A DNA stretch of 64,000 nucleotides, from the NCBI GenBank assembly GCA_910587945.1, contig CAJUNI010000001.1, positions 10,283 to 74,282 on the forward strand, in the 5' to 3' direction. Made by a program: the position numbers and the translations under genes. This document shows positions 3,356 through 50,400 of the stretch, piece by piece. The notes beneath the pieces are model-generated. The model was not told where the DNA came from and searched no databases. It saw nothing but the letters and a program-made list of their open reading frames with translations. This DNA comes from an uncultured Parvibacter sp. GTDB lineage: Bacteria > Actinomycetota > Coriobacteriia > Coriobacteriales > Eggerthellaceae. The first letter of the stretch is position 1. Each line of letters opens with the position of its first letter.

Positions 3356-3895
3356 ATGAGTGAAGAATTATTGGAGGACGTTGAGGTTGTTAAAGAGGCG
3401 GCTGAAGACGCTTCTGATGATGTGGTTACTGATGAAATGCTTGATAGTATCGCTGATACGGCCATTGAGGTTCTTCAAAACATTCTTAAGTACTTCAATG
3501 TAGGTGAAGTAACGATCGATGAATATGATGGCGATGAAGGTGAACTCATTCTCGATATCACTGGTGATGATTTAGCTATTCTTATTGGTCGCCATGGCCG
3601 TACCTTAGATGCTCTGCAGTTTCTTGTTTCAGCTATCACAATGAAAACTATCGGGTTTAGATATCCGCTGGTTATTGATGTAGAGGGTTATAAGAGCCGT
3701 CAACGGGAAAAATTAGAATCCATCGCTCGTTCATCAGCTCATAAAGCTATTCATCAACATCGCGAGATTAAATTGCGTCCTATGACTCCCTATGAACGTC
3801 GTATTGTTCATATCGCGCTCCGTGATGATGATCGAGTAGAGACTATTTCTGAAGGTGAAGGTCCAGGCCGGCATATCGTTATCTATCCTCGCTAA
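3356..3895 (+). CDS. jag: Jag/KhpB (EloR)-type RNA-binding protein with KH and R3H domains
   Basis: Acidic N-terminus, KH-like LAILIGRHGRTLDALQFL, and R3H motif ERRIVHIALRDD. Conserved position after yidC. Confidence 0.85.
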   Translation: MSEELLEDVEVVKEAAEDASDDVVTDEMLDSIADTAIEVLQNILKYFNVGEVTIDEYDGDEGELILDITGDDLAILIGRHGRTLDALQFLVSAITMKTIGFRYPLVIDVEGYKSRQREKLESIARSSAHKAIHQHREIKLRPMTPYERRIVHIALRDDDRVETISEGEGPGRHIVIYPR

Positions 3896-4880: not shown

Positions 4881-5852
4881 ATGGGCATATTCGATGGTAA
4901 ACGAAGTACGAAAAGAGATACGCCATCAAAACCTATCCCTCCTGAGGAACATTCTACTTACGATGATGTGGTAGAAGTAGAGTCTGCAGAAGTGATAATG
5001 CGAGATATTAAACCGAGTCTTGAAAATCAAGCGGTTGTTACTCCTCTTCGTGGTTACAAGGATAAGAAGCCGGTAACTCATGTAATTGGAAGCACGAAAA
5101 TTATTGCCATCATTAATCAGAAAGGTGGTGTCGGTAAGTCGACTACCGCTATTAATTTGGCAGCAGCTCTTGGTTCCCTTGGTAAACAAGTTCTTTTAGT
5201 CGATTTAGATCCTCAAGGAAACTCGTCGAGCGGTCTTGGTATTGAAAAGAACGAAGTAGAATACTGTATTTATGACGTACTACTCAATGATGTCCCTATT
5301 GAAGAGGTAATTATTCCTGATGTCTATGAGGGATTAGACGTAGTTCCTGCAACTATAAACTTGGCAGGCGCAGAAGTTGAGCTCGTGTCGGAGATGGCCC
5401 GAGAGAATCGACTTAAAGACGCAGTGGGTTCTATGAGGGGACGCTACGATTATATTTTGATTGATTGTCCACCCTCCCTTGGTTTATTAACAATCAATGC
5501 TCTTGTAGCCGCAGATAAGTTACTTATTCCCATCCAGTGCGAGTTCTATGCCCTTGAAGGTGTGACAAAACTTCTTGAATCAATGAAACGTGTCAAAACA
5601 AGGCTAAATCCAACCCTAGATATCTACGGTGTCTTATTAACTATGTACGATTCTCGTACAACGCTTTCCAAGCAAGTAGTTGATGAAGTTCGAAATTACT
5701 TTGGGCGAGTGGTATTCGACACTCTTATTCCACGTACGGTAAAGCTCTCTGAAGCACCAAGTTATGGAATGCCTATTACTGAGTATGATCCACAAGGCCG
5801 TGGCTCAATCTCTTATACAGAATTAGCAAAGGAAGTGATTGCTCGTGGCTAA
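4881..5852 (+). CDS. parA: Chromosome partitioning ATPase ParA/Soj
   Basis: Deviant Walker A KIIAIINQKGGVGKSTTAINLA, then DLDPQGN and ILIDCPPSLG. Has an N-terminal extension of about 70 aa. Confidence 0.93.
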   Translation: MGIFDGKRSTKRDTPSKPIPPEEHSTYDDVVEVESAEVIMRDIKPSLENQAVVTPLRGYKDKKPVTHVIGSTKIIAIINQKGGVGKSTTAINLAAALGSLGKQVLLVDLDPQGNSSSGLGIEKNEVEYCIYDVLLNDVPIEEVIIPDVYEGLDVVPATINLAGAEVELVSEMARENRLKDAVGSMRGRYDYILIDCPPSLGLLTINALVAADKLLIPIQCEFYALEGVTKLLESMKRVKTRLNPTLDIYGVLLTMYDSRTTLSKQVVDEVRNYFGRVVFDTLIPRTVKLSEAPSYGMPITEYDPQGRGSISYTELAKEVIARG

Positions 5853-33165: not shown

Positions 33166-34317
33166 ATGATCACGGTTCAAGACATAGTGCAACTGCCAGA
33201 GTTTGATTCCATCCGACTGGCCGCTCCCTGCGCTGACTACCTTGAGCGCCCGGTGGTGCGCGCTGCCATCCTTGATCACGAGCCTTTTAGTGGGGAATAC
33301 GATGTCTTTGTGCCCGGCGAATTTGTGTTGACCACGCTCGGGTTTGCCCAAAAGGATCCAGAGCTTGCCGAAGAAGCCATCCTGAAAGTGTTGTCTCGAG
33401 GCGTGGCGGCGTTGGCTATTAAGCCCGTGGCAATGAAGCAGCTTCCCGAGGCCTGCGCTCGCGCCAGCCAAGAAACAGGCGTCCCCGTATTCTTCTATAA
33501 CGGGCGCTATTCCGAACATGTGATCACGGCCATCATGGAAGCCGTGGCCGAAGATGCCAACAATTCTCAAGCTCAGCGCATCATTGGGCAGCTGATTGCG
33601 CCCTCAGACGAAATGGCTGTGCGCACAGCGCTGTTCACGTTGGCGCAAATGACCGGTGCTACGTTTCAGGCGGTAGCGGTTCGCCCTCGTCATGAAGACG
33701 AAGCTAATGTGCGCGCGGCGGGTATGGTGCTCGAGGAGATACTTCAGAGCTATCGTAATCGATGGCCCGATGTGGAAACGGTTCGGGCGGTGCGCTATAG
33801 AAATACGCAGCTTGGTTTGATTTCCTATAAGCGCCCTCCCAAAGAGCTCATTGCCATGTCTGACCCAGACTTGCAACGGCGGATGGCCGAAGCCGGGACT
33901 CTCTATTGCGGCATCAGTTTGGAAATGCCCCTGGGCGAGGGAGACTTGGCGTTGCGCCAAGCCTTGGCTGCGCTCGACTGGGCGGTGGAACAGCAAGAGA
34001 CTTCGGTGCGGTGGGCGTCTATGGGTATGGAAGCCTATCGGCGAGCCGTGGCGGCGGATCGCCTGATGGGAGGAACTGCCCGCCTTATGAAAGGGTTCCT
34101 CATTCAATACGATGACCTTCATGAAGGGTGGCTCTTCCAAACAGCTCAAGAGTTTGCGCGTAATTATGGGTCTATTAGCCAAACGGCAGCAGCTCTTTAT
34201 CAGCATCCCAATACGGTGCGCTATCGGTTGAAGCGCCTCAAGGAGGTGTTGGGGGTTGAATCTATGAGTGATAGGGAACTGGCAACATTTCTTGCCCTCA
34301 CCTTCTTTTCGCCCTAA
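33166..34317 (+). CDS. PucR/CdaR-family transcriptional regulator
   Basis: N-terminus MITVQDIVQLPEF (PucR-type) and the C-terminal HTH ISQTAAALYQHPNTVRYRLKRLKEVLG. ATG 33166 is preceded by GAAAGGGGG. Confidence 0.82.
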   Translation: MITVQDIVQLPEFDSIRLAAPCADYLERPVVRAAILDHEPFSGEYDVFVPGEFVLTTLGFAQKDPELAEEAILKVLSRGVAALAIKPVAMKQLPEACARASQETGVPVFFYNGRYSEHVITAIMEAVAEDANNSQAQRIIGQLIAPSDEMAVRTALFTLAQMTGATFQAVAVRPRHEDEANVRAAGMVLEEILQSYRNRWPDVETVRAVRYRNTQLGLISYKRPPKELIAMSDPDLQRRMAEAGTLYCGISLEMPLGEGDLALRQALAALDWAVEQQETSVRWASMGMEAYRRAVAADRLMGGTARLMKGFLIQYDDLHEGWLFQTAQEFARNYGSISQTAAALYQHPNTVRYRLKRLKEVLGVESMSDRELATFLALTFFSP

Positions 34318-34484: not shown

Positions 34485-34745
34485 ATGAAACTGTTTGCAA
34501 AAGCCCTCGAAGCTATGAACAATGCCAGTGCCCAAGACAGTGCCTATTGCGCGAACTTGGCCAAGCGGTTTGAAGCCATGGGCATTTCTTCGGCTCAGGC
34601 CAGTGACGCCATCTGTACTCTGATCGAAAAAGAGGCGGTACCTCAGGTGGGGGTTTGGGCGGCAACTCCGTCTATGTTTAACATCAAAACGGAAGCTGCT
34701 TCTGCTCCTCAAGGGGACTATGAACTGCAAGGAGCCCTCAGCTAG
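34485..34745 (+). CDS. Hypothetical 86-aa protein
   Basis: Strong Shine-Dalgarno (AAGGAGAG) 6 nt before ATG 34485, and a terminator downstream. No family recognised. Confidence 0.45.
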   Translation: MKLFAKALEAMNNASAQDSAYCANLAKRFEAMGISSAQASDAICTLIEKEAVPQVGVWAATPSMFNIKTEAASAPQGDYELQGALS

Positions 34746-34784
34746 GAACCAAACACCGAAAATTTTTTGAAGCCAGATGTGCCC

Positions 34785-34822
34785 GTGCCCCGACTCGCAA
34801 AAGAGCCGGGGCACTGCTTTTA
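34785..34822 (+). terminator. Putative rho-independent terminator
   Basis: Stem GTGCCCCG / CGGGGCAC with a 14-nt loop, followed by TGCTTTTA. Confidence 0.5.
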
Positions 34823-35153
34823 TGGGGGTGAAGTTGCCCGAGCTCTCAGTTGGAATCTAGGAAGGGAACGAGCGTATGTAGACCATGGTTGAGCGGTGCT
34901 GACTTCAAAACCTAAATCGGAAGAATGGATTGAAAAAGTAGGCTCTATCTGGTAGTACACCGTACGCATGTGCTATGAACATTTGATGAATGGGTCTGTT
35001 ATACGTTGGTTACAAGCCGCGAAAACACGGAGCGATTCGCCGGGCACCGCTGCCGGTAATGCTGTGTGGAAAGGTCATGAAATAGGGCTCCCATCAGGGC
35101 ATAAGGTGGTTGTAGGGATCCTGAAAACTTGTGGATTGAATGTTGCCAACCTG

Positions 35154-35182
35154 TTGAAACCTCTACCCTGCGGGCGTAGAAT
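35154..35182 (+). promoter_or_regulatory. Candidate sigma-70-type promoter for the giant gene
   Basis: TTGAAA (35154-35159), an exact 17-nt spacer, then TAGAAT (35177-35182). Lies about 80 nt upstream of ATG 35265. Motif match only. Confidence 0.35.
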
Positions 35183-35314
35183 TGATTATTCCTACTTATT
35201 CATAGTAGGAGCAGTGTCTTTACCACTGGATTGAAGATAGGTGCAAATTCGAAAGGCTATAGCCATGAGCGACACCCATCATGACATAAAGAAGTTCAAC
35301 CATCATACCTTCGC

Positions 35315-35324
35315 GGGGGGGGGG
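35315..35324 (+). repeat. G10 homopolymeric tract between ATG 35265 and the giant ORF frame
   Basis: Counted directly: c35314, then ten G, then t35325. Confidence 0.95.
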
Positions 35325-35439
35325 TCCTCTCAACGAAGATCTTCCTAATTCCCCCCATGCGCCTACAGGGTTAGGGGAAGAGTTACCACAAACGGCCGAA
35401 AGGACTGATTACCGTCGGCCGGCTAAGCCCTGGGAGAGG

Positions 35440-38400
35440 GTGGTGTCGGTTGTGATGGCGGTCCTTTTGGCCGTTACTATGTTTGACGCCAGTTCCTTGT
35501 CTCCATTAGTGGCAGAAGCGGCTCCCGAGGAGCCCGCAGTCGAGGCACCCGTCGATGACACTGCTGCCACCGAAGAAGCGCAGTCCGAAGAGAGCGACTC
35601 GACGGACCCCGATGCTTCGGCGACCGAGGAGGGGGAAGAGGCTACTCCGGAGGAGACCGAAGAGACAGCCAAGCCAAAGCTCTCGGAGCTCCAAGGAATT
35701 GCCCTTGATCAATCGGCACTAGAGACTCTTGCACCCGATGGTCTTATTCCCCTGGACGAGGTAACTCCTGCCTTTGAAGAAGGCACCGGATCACTTGAAG
35801 ACATCATCATCCCGGCACTCAATGTATGGGGTGCTCCTTTGGCTGCAAGTACGGGATATCTGGTTTCTGACCAGCCCCTTCATGTCGCTTTGACCCTTGA
35901 CGAAGAGGCGCTCAATCGCGGATTTATCGGAGGTACGGCTGCCGCTGATCGCTTCAATTTCACTATAGAACTGCCCTATGTCTATAAAGCTTCCGAAGAT
36001 GGAACCCTCGGAGTTACCGCCTCGGCGGAAGAGTGGATGGTTCGGGCTGCCTTAGCGCAAGCCTACGATGAGACCGCTGACAACGCTACCACAGAAGAAA
36101 TTCAAAGCGCCGCTGCAGCGCTCATTGAAACCATGGATCCGACCCAAGCCACCCGTGCGGTATTGCGCAGTAGCGACATTCCCCAAGGCTGGAAACTTTG
36201 GCAGCGTCATGGGTCTGGTTGGTTGCCCTTGACTGCCGATGACCTTGCGGCAGGTATTAGTGGCAAGGTGCTGTTCCGCTATGAGGGCCTTGGGCTCGGT
36301 GATTCTGCCGCAGATAAAGCACTGCAAGAGTCCACGGACGAAGCAGATATTGCCTTACGGGATGCCGTCGTTCCCGGTGCCCTCGATGCTACTTCTCAGC
36401 TGCCGGAATTCGAGCTCACCGTTGTAGGATCGCTCGACGAAGGTCACAGCATCCCCGTGGTCTGGGGTTATGAGGGTCACTCTTATACCAACAAGGAAGG
36501 TGAGGTCACGCTTGGTGCTGCCCGCCGGGCTGCCGTTGAATCCATCCCCCTTGCTGCAGGGGAGTTTGATGGCCAAGCCGAGCTTTCAGTGGAAGCCCTT
36601 GCGGCGCCAAAGGGTTGGAGCGTCCATGCGCTCACAGTCGCTATTCCCGAAGATGCTCCTCGGGCCCAAGCACTCAATGTGGCGGCGCTCTATCCGGAGC
36701 ATTTGGCCCTTCGAGACGACGCTCGCTTTTATGATGTAACCGCTCTGGAGGCCGAAGCGCTCGTAGAGCTCGATTTCACGGACACGGCAGCCATGGAAGA
36801 GGCGGGCGCAACGCCCGTGGATGCTTCGGTGGTAGCTACGGGTTCCATTTCTGCAGCCCTCGAAGAAGCCGGGGCTATCGAGCCTGGTGAGACGCGCACG
36901 TTGGTAGTGGCCGTCCCCTGGGCAGAGGGCGCTTTCGCCTCGCTGTTGCCGGCCACCGACGACGCATCAGCGCAGGCTCCGGAGAAAACGCTCGTAACCG
37001 ATGAACAATGGGCCGATGTCTTTGCCGTGCAGCGTCCGCTTTATGGGGGTGTTCTTCAGAACAAAGCCACCAGCGAAGAGACGCAGTCCGTGCAGGTCCC
37101 TGTGGTGTTTGAAGCGGAGCCGATCTTTGCTCAAGAGGATGACACCATTGCCCTGCGTTTGCGCGAGGAAGTAAATGCTGACGTTACCGATGCCCCCGCG
37201 TCCAAGGATGAGCCGGAAGCCGAGGAACCGAGTGATGCCGAGGAAGGCGACGAGTCCACAACAGAGGAAGATCCTGCCGACGGAAACACGGAGGCAACCG
37301 AGGAACCTGCTACCGAGATCGCCCCGCGCCCGGAGCCGGTGAAAAACTATGGCATGTATGCCAACGCCCTGGTGGAGCGTCCGCTCTATCGAGCTGCTGG
37401 TGCCTACAATCTGGCGGACCATTTTAATCCCTACCTGTTCCCGGCCACCACGTTGATGGAATTGCCGGAAACGGAAAACGTTTACATGGTGTCTAAGAGC
37501 ACCGACGTAAAAGTTCAGACAATGATCGAGGTCAACTCCAGCGGTGGCTTCATTGGTGACTTGACCCACCCTATTGAACTCAAGATTGTGGTGCCCTTCA
37601 TTTATAAAGATGCCCAAGGCAACGTGCTCACGGCCGATACTGAAGAGGCCTACAAAGAGGCCATGGGTATCACGGGTAATCTTACTCCCGAGCAATGCAA
37701 TACCATGATGCGCCTCGCGGCAACACCTCAAGATACGGATGCCGCGGCCTTCTTTGAGGAATGGCGTGTATATGTTTGTCCGAATGGAACCACTGAGGGT
37801 ATGTATCAGTTTGACCCGGAGTGGATGGATCCCAACAGCCCTTTGGCCTCTCCGCTCTATGCCGGCAAGGGTCTAACCGGTACCTTTATTTTGCAATACA
37901 TTGGTGCCGGCGGCATGTTCAGTAATCAATACAGCGCAGCACCCCAGTTTGATATCAAATTCTTGGGATCCGTTCCCGAAAACACCGCCGCCACTATGAA
38001 GGTCGGCGGCAAAGTTACCCTCTACACCGACGATAACAACGAACGCCACGAGGGTCTCTATGAAGTGCGACCAGGCGAACTAGATCCGACCTCGGACAAA
38101 CTTCGCTACATGACCTTTATTAAAACGAACCTCGCTTGGGAAACCGATCTTTCCGTCAAATACGACAAAGGTGATCAAAAGCCCCTGCTGTGGGAGCCCA
38201 TCAACTACCTGGTGTACGAGGTACGGATTCGCAACACCTCGGAGGTGGACGACAGTGGCGAAGTAACCCCCATTGATCTGGTGCGGCACAACTTAACCGT
38301 TGCCTATGACGGCAGTTCTGTGGGCGGTGTCCGGCGTCGTGACCTTATGGCCTATATGTTGGACGAGTCTGGGAATGTGGTTCCCGTTACTACCTATGAC

Positions 38401-47400: not shown

Positions 47401-50400
47401 CACATCGATTTCTATATCCGCGAGTTTAGGGTTGATCCTGTTACCGGCGAGCCGCTGAAAAACGCTGCGGGGGAATATGAGTACAAGACGGCGCTTGGCA
47501 CCTACGTTTCTGCCAGCACGCCAGGCTATACCCGCGTTCATCGCTTGAGCCAAGGCACCGGTGGCCCTGCGGCTAATGAAATTGACTTTGTGGGGGCCTG
47601 GAATGCGAAGAAGGACGTTCACGTTCGCTTTGACCATGCCGGTCAAGACAATGCGAGTCAAATCAGTTATGTGAACGCCTCTACTCCTTACTCTTACATC
47701 TTCACTGACCTGAAGACCTACGACTTTGTCACGAGCTATGACGTCGTGCTGACCGACGTTCATGGCTCGGCGGACTATACCGATGAGACCGGCTATGCCA
47801 CGAATTCCCATGGTGACCCCTACGAGAAGTACAGCAGTTGGAACCGTCAGGACCATGACATGTTGGTCTATGGTCGTCCCTACACCTGGAAGCCTATCAA
47901 TACCTCCAAAGAGCCCTACAAATCTGACTGGGCGCGGATGAAGAAAGACTCCATCAATACGGTATGGACCTCCACCTATCGCGACTACAGCAAGCTGGCG
48001 GATCAGGGTGGCCACCAATACGTTAATAAGGTCAAGGACACCGGGCCCTCCTATGGCATTGGTGACAATGACCACTACAAAGACCGTGCCTACATTGTGT
48101 CCTTCGGTATTCCCATTCAGGCCAATGTCTGGCTCGATGCGCAGAATAGCGCCGGCAACAATGCCGATGGCACCACGCTCTATGACTATAAAGACAACAA
48201 CGTCAAGAACGTGACGCCCAACATTGGTACCTATGAAGCCCGTATGCAAAACCTCAAAGACAAGGGCGGCGAAGATGCCACCGGTCGTGCCACTCATATT
48301 TCCTATGCACAGCTGACGGCCAACCTGTCTTCTTACTTGCGTTTGCAGAAGGTCTATATTCCCAAGGGCTTCATCGACAACATCAAGAAGAACGCCGATG
48401 GCACAGCGGAAAATGGCGGTTGGTTCGAGTTGCAATCGTTCAAGTTCACGGTGCAGGTAGACGGTGGCACTCAGACCGTTACGGCTTCCTGGCAAGACTT
48501 GGTGGATTGGGGCTTAACCAGTGGACCCAATAGCAGCACGAAGTATCCTGACTGCTATGTCATTGATGTTGAGAAATATCTGCGCCAGAAGTTTGATGAT
48601 GGCAGCTGGACGTTAGCTACCTATAAAGCCTGCGACACCACCAATACCATCGAGGGCTATCGTGGCAATCCGGAAGTGAACCGTACCTATTCGCGGCCTC
48701 GGGTAGTATCCATGGAGCTGACCTATAATTCGCCGAACGCCCTGCAGCGTCGTGAGCTTCGTATGCTGGACTCCGAAGAGTGGCTCACCGACACTAAGGC
48801 CAAAGCTGGGGTGAAGAATTCTCGCGATGCCGATTCCTATGCCTTCGCCTTTGCCTATGATGGCGTCTTTGTAGACCGCACTCCCGATAGCTATACTTCG
48901 GCCACGGCCACCGGCAATGATCCGGCCACGGGCAATTGGGATGATTACTCAACCCCGACCTTTGGTAAGCAAGGCACGGGCTTCCCGGATGTCTACTCCA
49001 ACGACACCGTCGTAGTAACGGACCTGAAATCCAAAGACCCCCATGCCGACATGTCCGTTTTGCCGAACGTTATTGACGACGATGGTGGCTATAACCTGCG
49101 TCACCTTTTGGGTATCTTGGATAGTTCCATGACCCGTGGCGCAACCCTGCCGGTTCGCAGCGCCTCAGGGTCTATCACGGGCTATCGCCATGTGTTTGCT
49201 TATGACAAAGCGGCTACCGATGTGGAGTCGCCGGTATCCTACGATCCCGATTCCGAAACTATGTGGACCAACATTCCTGATGGTGGCCTCTACGTGGGCG
49301 ACTATGTGGAATACGACCTCTATATTGGTGCCGATGCGGCATCAGTGCTGCCCATGGAATCACTCTCCGCTCGCTTTGAGGTGGAGAAGGGCCAGCGCAT
49401 TATTGGCTGGGAAGTGAAGAAACAACAAGATGGAACTGGCGCGTGGGTTGACGCGAACAGTGCAAACCTGCCGGTGACGGCAACCCTTGGAAACGCCAGC
49501 GGCACGAACACCCAGGAATGTCTGCCCCAGGTGGACTACAGTGTGACCACGACGGTGACCTATCCTGACCCGGAGCCTGACCCAGATCCAGATCCCGACC
49601 CGGATCCTGATCCCGATCCCGACCCAGACCCAGACCCTGATCCGGACCCCGATCCGGACCCCGATCCGGAGCCGAATCCTGATCCCGAGAACCCCGAGCC
49701 CGAAACTCCGGAAACCCCGGACACCCCGGAGGTTCCCGAAGAGACTGCTTCGGTCCAGACTGAACAGCTCACTCAAAACGAGATGGCTACTCAGGCACTC
49801 GTTCAGTCTGTTGCGGCCGCCATGCCCCTGGTGGATCCCATCATCACCACCACGGAGAACTACGACAACAACCGCGTTCTGGAATTCCAGGTGGGCCGCA
49901 CCCTCTATGAGCTCAACGAAAATGGAGAGTATGTGCTCACGCCGGAAGCTGACCGTGTGGTACAGCCGGGCAAGGGTGTTCATATTCGCGTTATTACCCA
50001 GCTGACGGACGAGGTTTCTAACAGCACCTATGACCAGGTGAAAGAAAATACCGCCTGGAATGATGATCGTCCGACCCATTACATGAACTATCACCCGCGG
50101 GCGTACTTCTATGGCACTTCGGCGCCGAAGCACGGCTTTACCCAATATCGTGCTAAGGGCAGCAGCGCACAAAATTACAGCACTCCCTTCACCTATAGCA
50201 ATGACGAAGGGTTGGGTACGAGCGACATTGCCCATGAGCATAGCTATAACTATGTGGTGGGTGGCATCAAGCAATACGGCGTCCGTCTGCGCTCGGATTT
50301 AACCTACTACAATCATCGCAGCGACCACACGCGCACCCATATTGAGACGGGTTCGGATGGCTTCTCCTACGTAGTGAACGACGACCACGCGAAAGACCCC

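Follow-up and report, generated by a model that had tools for sequence, protein, structure and literature searches.

The question that this locus raises is how the gene of a giant protein can be read when a run of ten G residues puts it out of frame with the only ATG upstream of it, and whether such a run is a genuine switch or an error of the assembly. The window, i.e. the whole stretch of 64,000 nucleotides (nt) that was analysed, comes from an uncultured species of the Eggerthellaceae (Coriobacteriia, Actinomycetota; GC 52.6%) and contains a very long open reading frame (ORF) that is still open at the window end. A sequence-only reading of the window had named the G10 tract in front of this ORF as a candidate phase-variation switch or, alternatively, as a homopolymer assembly error. 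We consider it probable that the tract is a slipped-strand (replication-slippage) contingency switch that operates at the level of translation. The candidate switch is supported by natural ON and OFF alleles, by a coding N-terminal extension and by an ORF that stays intact; from these we infer reversible switching within clones.

The elements on which the argument depends are the following.

35251-35256, + strand: Shine-Dalgarno (SD)-like sequence GAAAGG, 8 nt before ATG 35265, as read from the sequence.
35265-35314, + strand: start codon of the long form with codons 1-16 and two bases of codon 17, MSDTHHDIKKFNHHTF(A).
35315-35324, + strand: G10 homopolymer, the proposed switch, in codons 17-20 after ATG 35265.
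35346-35348, + strand: TAA that closes the peptide of the G10 state.
35326-35439, + strand: segment of 38 giant-frame codons (PLNEDL...RTDYRRPAKPWER) for the cytoplasmic tail with the basic n-region, reachable solely from ATG 35265 in the ON allele.
35432-35439, + strand: internal SD-like sequence GGGAGAGG, formed by the Glu57-Arg58 codons GAG AGG.
35440-35445, + strand: GTG GTG, the earliest in-frame start candidates; GTG 35443 is the choice of the gene callers in OFF assemblies (10,655 amino acids, aa).
35440-35484, + strand: hydrophobic core VVSVVMAVLLAVTMF, a signal peptide or signal anchor, conserved in the family as xVSVxMxVLLAxTMFD.
35290-64000, + strand: giant ORF, open at the window end, with acidic linkers, a conserved N-terminal domain (35713-36705) and SdrD_B-like domains near the window end.

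The frame logic is as the sequence-only reading had described it. ATG 35265, preceded by GAAAGG, opens a frame that passes through the G10 tract and ends at TAA 35346-35348, giving a peptide of 27 aa (MSDTHHDIKKFNHHTFAGGGSSQRRSS). The giant frame is open from 35290 (the preceding stop is TAA 35287) to the window end, i.e. for more than 9,520 codons, and it has no ATG, GTG or TTG upstream of GTG 35440, which is followed by GTG 35443, GTG 35452 and ATG 35455. The claim that one G fewer or two more would fuse ATG 35265 to the giant ORF was borne out when tract lengths of G8 to G12 were simulated: G9 and G12 gave the fusion, whereas G10 gave the product of 27 aa and G8 or G11 gave products of 35-36 aa. 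In other words, a change of one repeat unit toggles between the full-length and the truncated product. The gene callers accordingly report a protein of 10,714 aa from ATG 35265 in the in-frame (ON) assemblies and one of 10,655 aa from GTG 35443 in the OFF assemblies. Before the tract, the frame of ATG 35265 has the top codon-usage score of the three frames (+2.6 bits vs -26 and -16). As GTG 35440 is the first possible start in the giant frame, the conserved n-region is untranslatable in the OFF state.

Both states are found among natural sequences. Exact copies of three neighbouring proteins led to 16 further independent assemblies of the same species, i.e. 17 with the window. These are at least 99.3% identical over up to 20 kb, and the 420 bp around the start are otherwise nearly invariant among them. 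It is conspicuous that the tract is the sole indel in several of the 20-kb comparisons and the sole indel-variable site in near-identical flanks. The comparison of the tract in related strains, which the sequence-only reading had proposed as a check, gave lengths of 9, 10 and 11 and a variant with a GC insertion. Five of the 17 assemblies are ON and 12 are OFF, and each of the three local haplotypes occurs in both states:

Background A (TTCGC-Gn-T): ON as G9 in three assemblies; OFF as G10 in eight, the window included.
Background B (GC insertion, TTCGCGC-Gn): ON as G10 in one assembly; OFF as G9 in three.
Background C (T35325G, CTCGC-Gn-CC): ON as G10 in one assembly; OFF as G11 in one.

L096 (OFF) and L104 (ON), both from one study, are identical at all other variable sites over 3.26 kb, and the window (OFF) likewise shows no other difference at variable sites from L095 and L102 (ON) over 3.26 kb.

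Several points weigh against a switch. Run length tracks the source of the assembly in backgrounds A and B, where it is G10 in 6/6 Logan assemblies and G9 in 6/8 from ENA/NCBI (Fisher p=0.0097); part of the length variation could reflect the choice of the assembler in mixed or noisy poly-G reads, or cohort structure. The contig of L105, which has an in-frame G9 in a related lineage described below, has a coverage of only ~1.6x. The ON fraction of 5/17 equals the expectation of unconstrained drift over three frames (1/3), and the ON:OFF ratio therefore shows no selection for ON. There is a good SD before GTG 35443, so the OFF state may not be fully off, and initiation at 35440-35455 may be less poor than the sequence-only reading had supposed. 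The product is described as a surface adhesin-like protein on indirect grounds, namely its size, its signal-anchor, its SdrD_B domains and non-significant fold hints. Finally, the alleles are known from assemblies alone, and heterogeneity within populations, the rate of switching, its reversibility within a clone, the surface location and the selective agent are all properties that we infer.

The first of these points could be taken to mean that there is a single true length and that the calls of 9, 10 and 11 arise from poly-G sequencing errors and assembler behaviour. We regard this as very unlikely. It is true that, apart from the correlation with source and the low coverage of L105, Illumina sequencing is known to have difficulty with G tracts (the 'G's end' effect, PMC9187656), and that two contigs from a unitig-based source (L113, end 3772, and L114, end 3747) stop at the tract or 13 nt past it. 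Such ends are as would be expected from mixed read lengths, and poly-G read drop-off would also produce them. However, every source gives two lengths on the same haplotype (ENA and NCBI each G9 and G10 in background A, Logan G10 and G11 in background C), and the ON/OFF state is not associated with the source (p=1.0). Consensus errors at a 10-mer are rare at normal depth. An artefact would also leave unexplained the tracts found in the same short segment of related genes and the fixed haplotypes in which a GC insertion or a T>G change resets the frame, and if G10 were the one true length, the conserved n-region would be untranslatable. The narrower suggestion of an error in a single assembly can be dismissed: G10 is present in 8 independent assemblies from three sources, next to in-frame forms with G9 (three assemblies), with GC and G10 (one) and with G10 followed by G for T (one).

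The next question is whether the segment around the tract is coding. An exhaustive HMMER search gave 56 family representatives, 28 of which have the conserved core K/R-x-W-x-R-x-x-S-V-x-x-x-x-L-L-A-x-T-M-F-D; a word-indexed protein search with the fused 640-aa N-terminus gave one match only. An N-terminal extension of ~20-300 aa stands ahead of the core in 26 of the 28. The exceptions are P0002, which is the species' own short call and begins MSVVMAV, and P0030, which has an in-frame SD-ATG 54 codons upstream that was skipped by the gene caller. The sequence-only reading had allowed that homologues might start at the hydrophobic core with no conservation upstream, and this is not the pattern seen, the extension being general and the n-region conserved. 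Its claim that a basic n-region lies in front of the core held as well: an alignment of five lineages has Trp56 and Arg58 without exception and a conserved Lys/Arg54, and these residues are beyond the reach of any in-frame start in the window.

L011 and L092 encode the same residues by different codons over ~16 codons upstream of KPW, a synonymous pattern that is therefore a protein-coding signature. The same-species single-nucleotide polymorphisms (SNPs) in the post-tract segment (35325 and 35340) are both synonymous in the giant frame, and L011 and L093 have unbroken ORFs at the N-terminus that begin from a good SD-ATG. GTG starts near the core in relatives (L092 2935, L093 1473, L094 2462) were considered and rejected, as there is conservation with synonymous turnover upstream of them and L011 has only ATT at this place. 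Judged from these sequences, ATG 35265 is the real start and the extension is coding.

The same data bear on the view that the tract lies in a 5' untranslated region (UTR), with the true start at GTG 35443 or ATG 35455, ATG 35265 as an incidental small upstream ORF and a tract length that is neutral. The neutral ON fraction would agree with it, and so would the atypical codon usage of the post-tract segment (-8.6 bits); even there, the giant frame outscores the other two. We give this view next to no probability and reject it because a conserved, coding extension is present upstream of 35440: protein-level conservation goes together with synonymous codon turnover, the extension is near-universal in the family, and the upstream frame of L094 matches the continuous N-termini of P0024 and P0056.

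In OFF genomes the ORF itself is intact. Every OFF contig is free of stops over ~1,208 codons, and the full calls have 10,650-10,655 aa. Between the window and L007, which both have G10, there are 134 SNPs in 3.6 kb, 105 of them at third positions; 100 changes are synonymous and 26 non-synonymous, with no stops, which points to purifying selection. To stay intact and selected in OFF strains, an ORF of 32 kb would have to be expressed regularly, as it would be if switching were reversible or if the OFF template allowed some expression. The OFF state is not gene decay.

Expression from the OFF template leads to another explanation, in which the tract would switch between isoforms: cells with G10 or G11 would initiate at GTG 35443 by means of GGGAGAGG and make a form of 10,655 aa that has neither the tail nor the n-region, with altered export, anchoring or level. 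This is unlikely, even if it has several points in its favour. GGGAG with a spacing of 6 nt is a good SD for GTG 35443, which is the start chosen by the gene callers. It uses AGG, a very rare Arg codon (1/401 in the giant ORF and 6/289 in the neighbouring genes), at an invariant Arg, which hints at selection at the nucleotide level. Moreover, G10 is the commonest state and yet the ORF is under purifying selection, for which frequent switching accounts equally well. On the other hand, a protein begun at GTG 35443 would lack the conserved K/R-x-W-x-R n-region and would have its very first residues in the hydrophobic core, and the internal SD GGGAGAGG is absent in all relatives examined. In the Bifidobacterium precedent discussed below, the second ORF has no active initiation (PMC9187656). 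A further element brackets the start region:

35391-35405 / 35461-35475, + strand: inverted repeat of 15 nt, 93% complementary, enclosing the internal SD and the GTG/ATG start candidates.

This repeat could mask or limit internal initiation when no ribosomes read through it. We also note that two AGG Arg codons lie less than 13 codons apart in this region (35401-35403 and 35437-35439) and that each makes an SD-like string (GAAAGGA and GGGAGAGG).

To return to the contingency switch, is the tract itself improbable? The G10 run is the sole homopolymer of at least 8 bases in the 64 kb. Dinucleotide shuffles of the window contain on average 1.1 runs of G9 or longer, and 26 of 100 shuffles equal or exceed the observed number; the mere presence of the tract is therefore not significant, as shuffles often match it. 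What appears non-random is its position and its behaviour. In 113 kb from nine related lineages there are six G/C tracts of at least 7 bases, and 4/6 of them lie in the segment between start and core, which makes up 1.9% of the sequence (binomial P=2e-6; P=6.5e-4 without the window).

The tract sites across the family are varied: at the eighth base of the ORF, ~50 nt in, ~102 nt in and ~190 nt upstream. L092 has an out-of-frame G7 located 52 nt after its ATG, and L105, of the same lineage and with near-identical flanks, has G9 in frame. L094 has C7 located 102 nt after its ATG, where C6 would restore a protein that is continuous in P0024 and P0056 (AHW[HR]T[RE]VPA..P.N.F..K.W); the DNA of P0024 has no homopolymer at the equivalent position. 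In L109 (1208-1217) a G10 begins at the eighth base of the P0006 ORF (ATGCCAC-G10-CGCT) and is in frame as assembled (MPRGGGAHS...). Finally, L106 (1160-1169) and the same site in L107 have an intergenic G10 ~190 nt upstream of the in-frame ATG of P0030, both assemblies having the same length; this may be a promoter-level tract.

Recurrence at an out-of-frame length could also mean that such a length is the normal one and that the full-length protein is made by programmed recoding, i.e. by +1 ribosomal frameshifting or by transcriptional slippage on the G run. Three lineages are exactly one base over the in-frame length (G10/G9, G7/G6 and C7/C6), G10 is the commonest allele, and tRNA-Gly can re-pair in any frame on a G run. 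Nevertheless, in-frame alleles exist in the genomes of this species, of L105 and of L109; background B is OFF by -1 and not by +1; the position and the base of the tract vary between lineages; and neither a slippery heptamer nor a stop or rare-codon context is conserved, nor was an Rfam frameshift element found. The leader fold is marginally more stable than shuffles (z=-1.9; 6/200 as stable) but includes no defined stimulatory element. We therefore hold recoding as the normal route to be exceedingly improbable, while a low-level product of slippage could coexist with a switch in the DNA.

A number of other observations were made in the family. P0001 in L011 is interrupted at codon 537 by one in-frame TAA (5585-5587), after which the frame continues for at least 1,640 codons; this may be a nonsense allele, a case of readthrough or an error. 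ORFs in L108 (~2150-2280) and L106 (6477-6525) are split by frameshifts that lie away from homopolymers of at least 7 bases. As far as these sequences tell, inactivation is evidently frequent among the giant genes of the family; in some cases it is irreversible, and in others it may stem from assembly error. L093 has a C8 inside the giant ORF at about codon 957, in frame (3499-3506), and long poly-G runs at the start of its contig (1-90) that resemble a sequencing artefact. In L110 an ORF of 182 aa (282-830) lies directly upstream of the giant gene. Its product shares the N-terminal motif (..AHWHTEV..), has a transmembrane segment and represents a small paralogue of the giant N-terminus, which suggests that the cytoplasmic tail may have a function of its own. 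A scan of GTDB genomes with the N-terminal alignment found no relative, and the giant gene is absent from the loci of the nearest proC relatives, i.e. Eggerthellaceae metagenome-assembled genomes (MAGs; 72-73%, one from mouse gut) and Adlercreutzia/Parvibacter (63-64%).

Taken over the whole family, we offer a wider picture only tentatively: giant signal-anchored proteins of Eggerthellaceae-like bacteria would have gained G/C tracts between promoter or start and signal-anchor repeatedly and independently, gut populations would be mostly OFF, and this would be the first simple-repeat phasome in Coriobacteriia; the present species would in addition have evolved its internal SD-GTG, which may give its OFF cells a tail-less isoform.

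How would the switch work in a cell? Two further features of the upstream region are needed here.

35154-35182, + strand: promoter-like TTGAAA-17-TAGAAT, a candidate from a consensus scan alone (10/12 matches).
35189-35211, + strand: hairpin with an 8-bp stem at the start of the predicted leader.

A transcript from the candidate promoter would begin near 35190, upstream of ATG 35265, where ribosomes would initiate. With G9, or with the equivalent 12-nt forms, they would translate 17 codons, Gly-Gly-Gly, the 38-codon tail with the n-region (..RRPAKPWER), the signal-anchor and the 32-kb body. With G10, or with the equivalent 11-nt forms, they would terminate after 27 or 36 codons; the giant ORF would then be silent or at most weakly initiated internally, and the long untranslated mRNA would probably be subject to polarity and decay. 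The gain or loss of one G at replication would flip the state of the cell, so that populations would hold both states. The likely benefit would be that a cell is spared the cost of a giant surface protein, or its exposure to immunity or phages, while the gene stays recoverable. Two other kinds of control were considered for the upstream region and rejected. An inverton was not favoured, as there is no convincing pair of inverted repeats around 35154-35182 and no recombinase among the neighbouring genes, and neither was a riboswitch, there being no match to any Rfam family within 34700-35600.

What is the gated protein? In the full contigs of other assemblies the whole gene has 10,655-10,714 codons (~32 kb). 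The recognisable features in the ~9,500 aa seen are SdrD_B-like domains (E=1e-16) and low-complexity matches in Pfam and NCBIfam, together with acidic linkers and a DP repeat; beyond these signals there is no NCBIfam match, and a PDB sequence search was empty. Neither the ~9,500 codons seen nor the genes upstream show signs of a pilin, a sortase or an LPXTG motif; the C-terminus is outside the window. The hydrophobic core is a helix in a low-confidence structure model. A first structure prediction from a 2-sequence alignment was unusable (predicted local distance difference test, pLDDT, 37); for the N-terminal domain (35713-36705), an 18-sequence alignment gave a pLDDT of 88 and a predicted template modelling score (pTM) of 0.82. 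This model has no Foldseek match in the PDB at E<=0.001, and no Pfam or NCBIfam family covers the domain. The fold therefore cannot name the protein. The sub-threshold Foldseek matches, which are non-significant, lean to Ig-like domains of Gram-positive adhesins and pilins, and the predicted domain may be an undescribed adhesin-type domain.

Within the giant ORF, a 24/30-nt tandem repeat at 49562-49688 encodes (D-P)n and is the source of spurious Trypan_PARP and TonB matches. The acidic linker at 35488-35793 is a SNP-dense haplotype block in which L096, L100 and L104 share ~30 differences from the window, with near-identical flanks; this suggests recombination or diversifying change. The neighbouring genes are those of an ordinary chromosome: a PucR-type regulator, mnmA, a major facilitator superfamily (MFS) transporter, a nitroreductase, proC and a 2-oxoacid:ferredoxin oxidoreductase. 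An ORF of 86 aa (34485-34745), which has no family match, separates the PucR-type regulator from the giant gene and is conserved throughout the assemblies of the species. At 34317, in the stop codon of the PucR-family regulator (L003/L098), an A>T SNP lengthens the regulator as called in one assembly from 383 to 422 aa.

Members of the Eggerthellaceae are common gut commensals with roles in the metabolism of drugs and phytochemicals. Their presentation to the host, to phages and to neighbouring bacteria is, to our knowledge, almost wholly undescribed. If the switch is real, a colonising population would contain 'coated' cells next to 'bare' ones, and metagenomes would allow a direct scoring of ON and OFF in different hosts. 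Mis-annotation of the gene would be routine in reference genomes and MAGs, as most assemblies here call the truncated start. The switch would also carry the G-tract paradigm beyond Bifidobacterium, into a second class of the Actinomycetota and to surface proteins of another kind, and it would suggest that homopolymer contingency loci are general in gut Actinomycetota rather than a speciality of pathogens. Most Actinomycetota are not known to possess MutS or MutL. A literature search found no report of homopolymer phase variation in Eggerthellaceae or Coriobacteriia, which is not proof of absence.

The closest known system is the switch of the sortase-dependent pili of Bifidobacterium breve UCC2003 (bbr_0113a/b and bbr_1889a/b; Penno et al. 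2022, PMC9187656). There, G10-G12 tracts part an ORF with the Sec signal from the rest of the first pilin gene, which is out of frame in the annotated reference genomes; the frame is regained by replication slippage, and the in-frame length becomes more frequent on passage through the gut (PMC9187656). The sequence-only reading had placed slippage switching of surface proteins mainly in Gram-negative pathogens and mycoplasmas; this does not stand, a near-identical design having been published for these pili, and the present locus is therefore less exotic than had been implied. Both systems belong to gut commensals of the Actinomycetota and have a 5' G tract in the gene of a surface protein (a probable one in the present case), with tracts that recur in relatives (genus-wide in Bifidobacterium). 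They differ in that the present tract gates a single protein of ~10,700 aa and not the head pilin of a sortase operon, and in that it lies before the signal-anchor, between the start and the n-region, whereas the bifidobacterial tract lies after the signal. Moreover, the host is here a member of the Coriobacteriia (Eggerthellaceae), and switching is deduced from assemblies. In other words, the locus works like the bifidobacterial pilus switch but is not a member of that system, as no pilin, sortase or LPXTG context is seen.

Other Actinomycetota provide looser parallels. In Gardnerella, poly-G/C tracts are linked to predicted surface proteins, ~70% of them in putative promoter regions (bioRxiv 10.1101/2023.01.13.523976), and homopolymer phase variation in Mycobacterium tuberculosis (PMC10334774) concerns shorter tracts in metabolic or regulatory genes. 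In both, tracts of ~7-10 nt vary among clonal variants and affect surface or adaptive genes; neither involves the giant-protein family, and the tract is here inside the ORF, whereas in Gardnerella it is mostly in promoters. Programmed frameshifting and transcriptional slippage, as represented in PMC9187656 by its citation of Atkins et al. 2016, likewise have a homopolymer where two overlapping frames meet. In recoding, however, the out-of-frame genotype is fixed and the stimulatory context is conserved, whereas here in-frame alleles are common and no such context is evident.

The classical contingency loci of Neisseria, Haemophilus and Campylobacter (hmbR/hpuAB and the Campylobacter G/C tracts; PMC3786947, PMC8355987, PMC5084427) agree with this locus in having ~8-11 G in the 5' coding region, an ON/OFF frameshift by one base, surface structures as targets (probable in the present case), and isolates that differ only at the tract. 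Unlike them, the present tract belongs to a commensal of the Actinomycetota and gates a gene of ~32 kb, and since one such tract was seen in 64 kb there is no evidence of a large phasome. The mechanism is of a well-known kind and would not surprise a specialist; what is notable in this comparison is how large the gated gene is, that ON and OFF alleles occur naturally in metagenomes, and that tracts recur in the gene family of an understudied gut clade.

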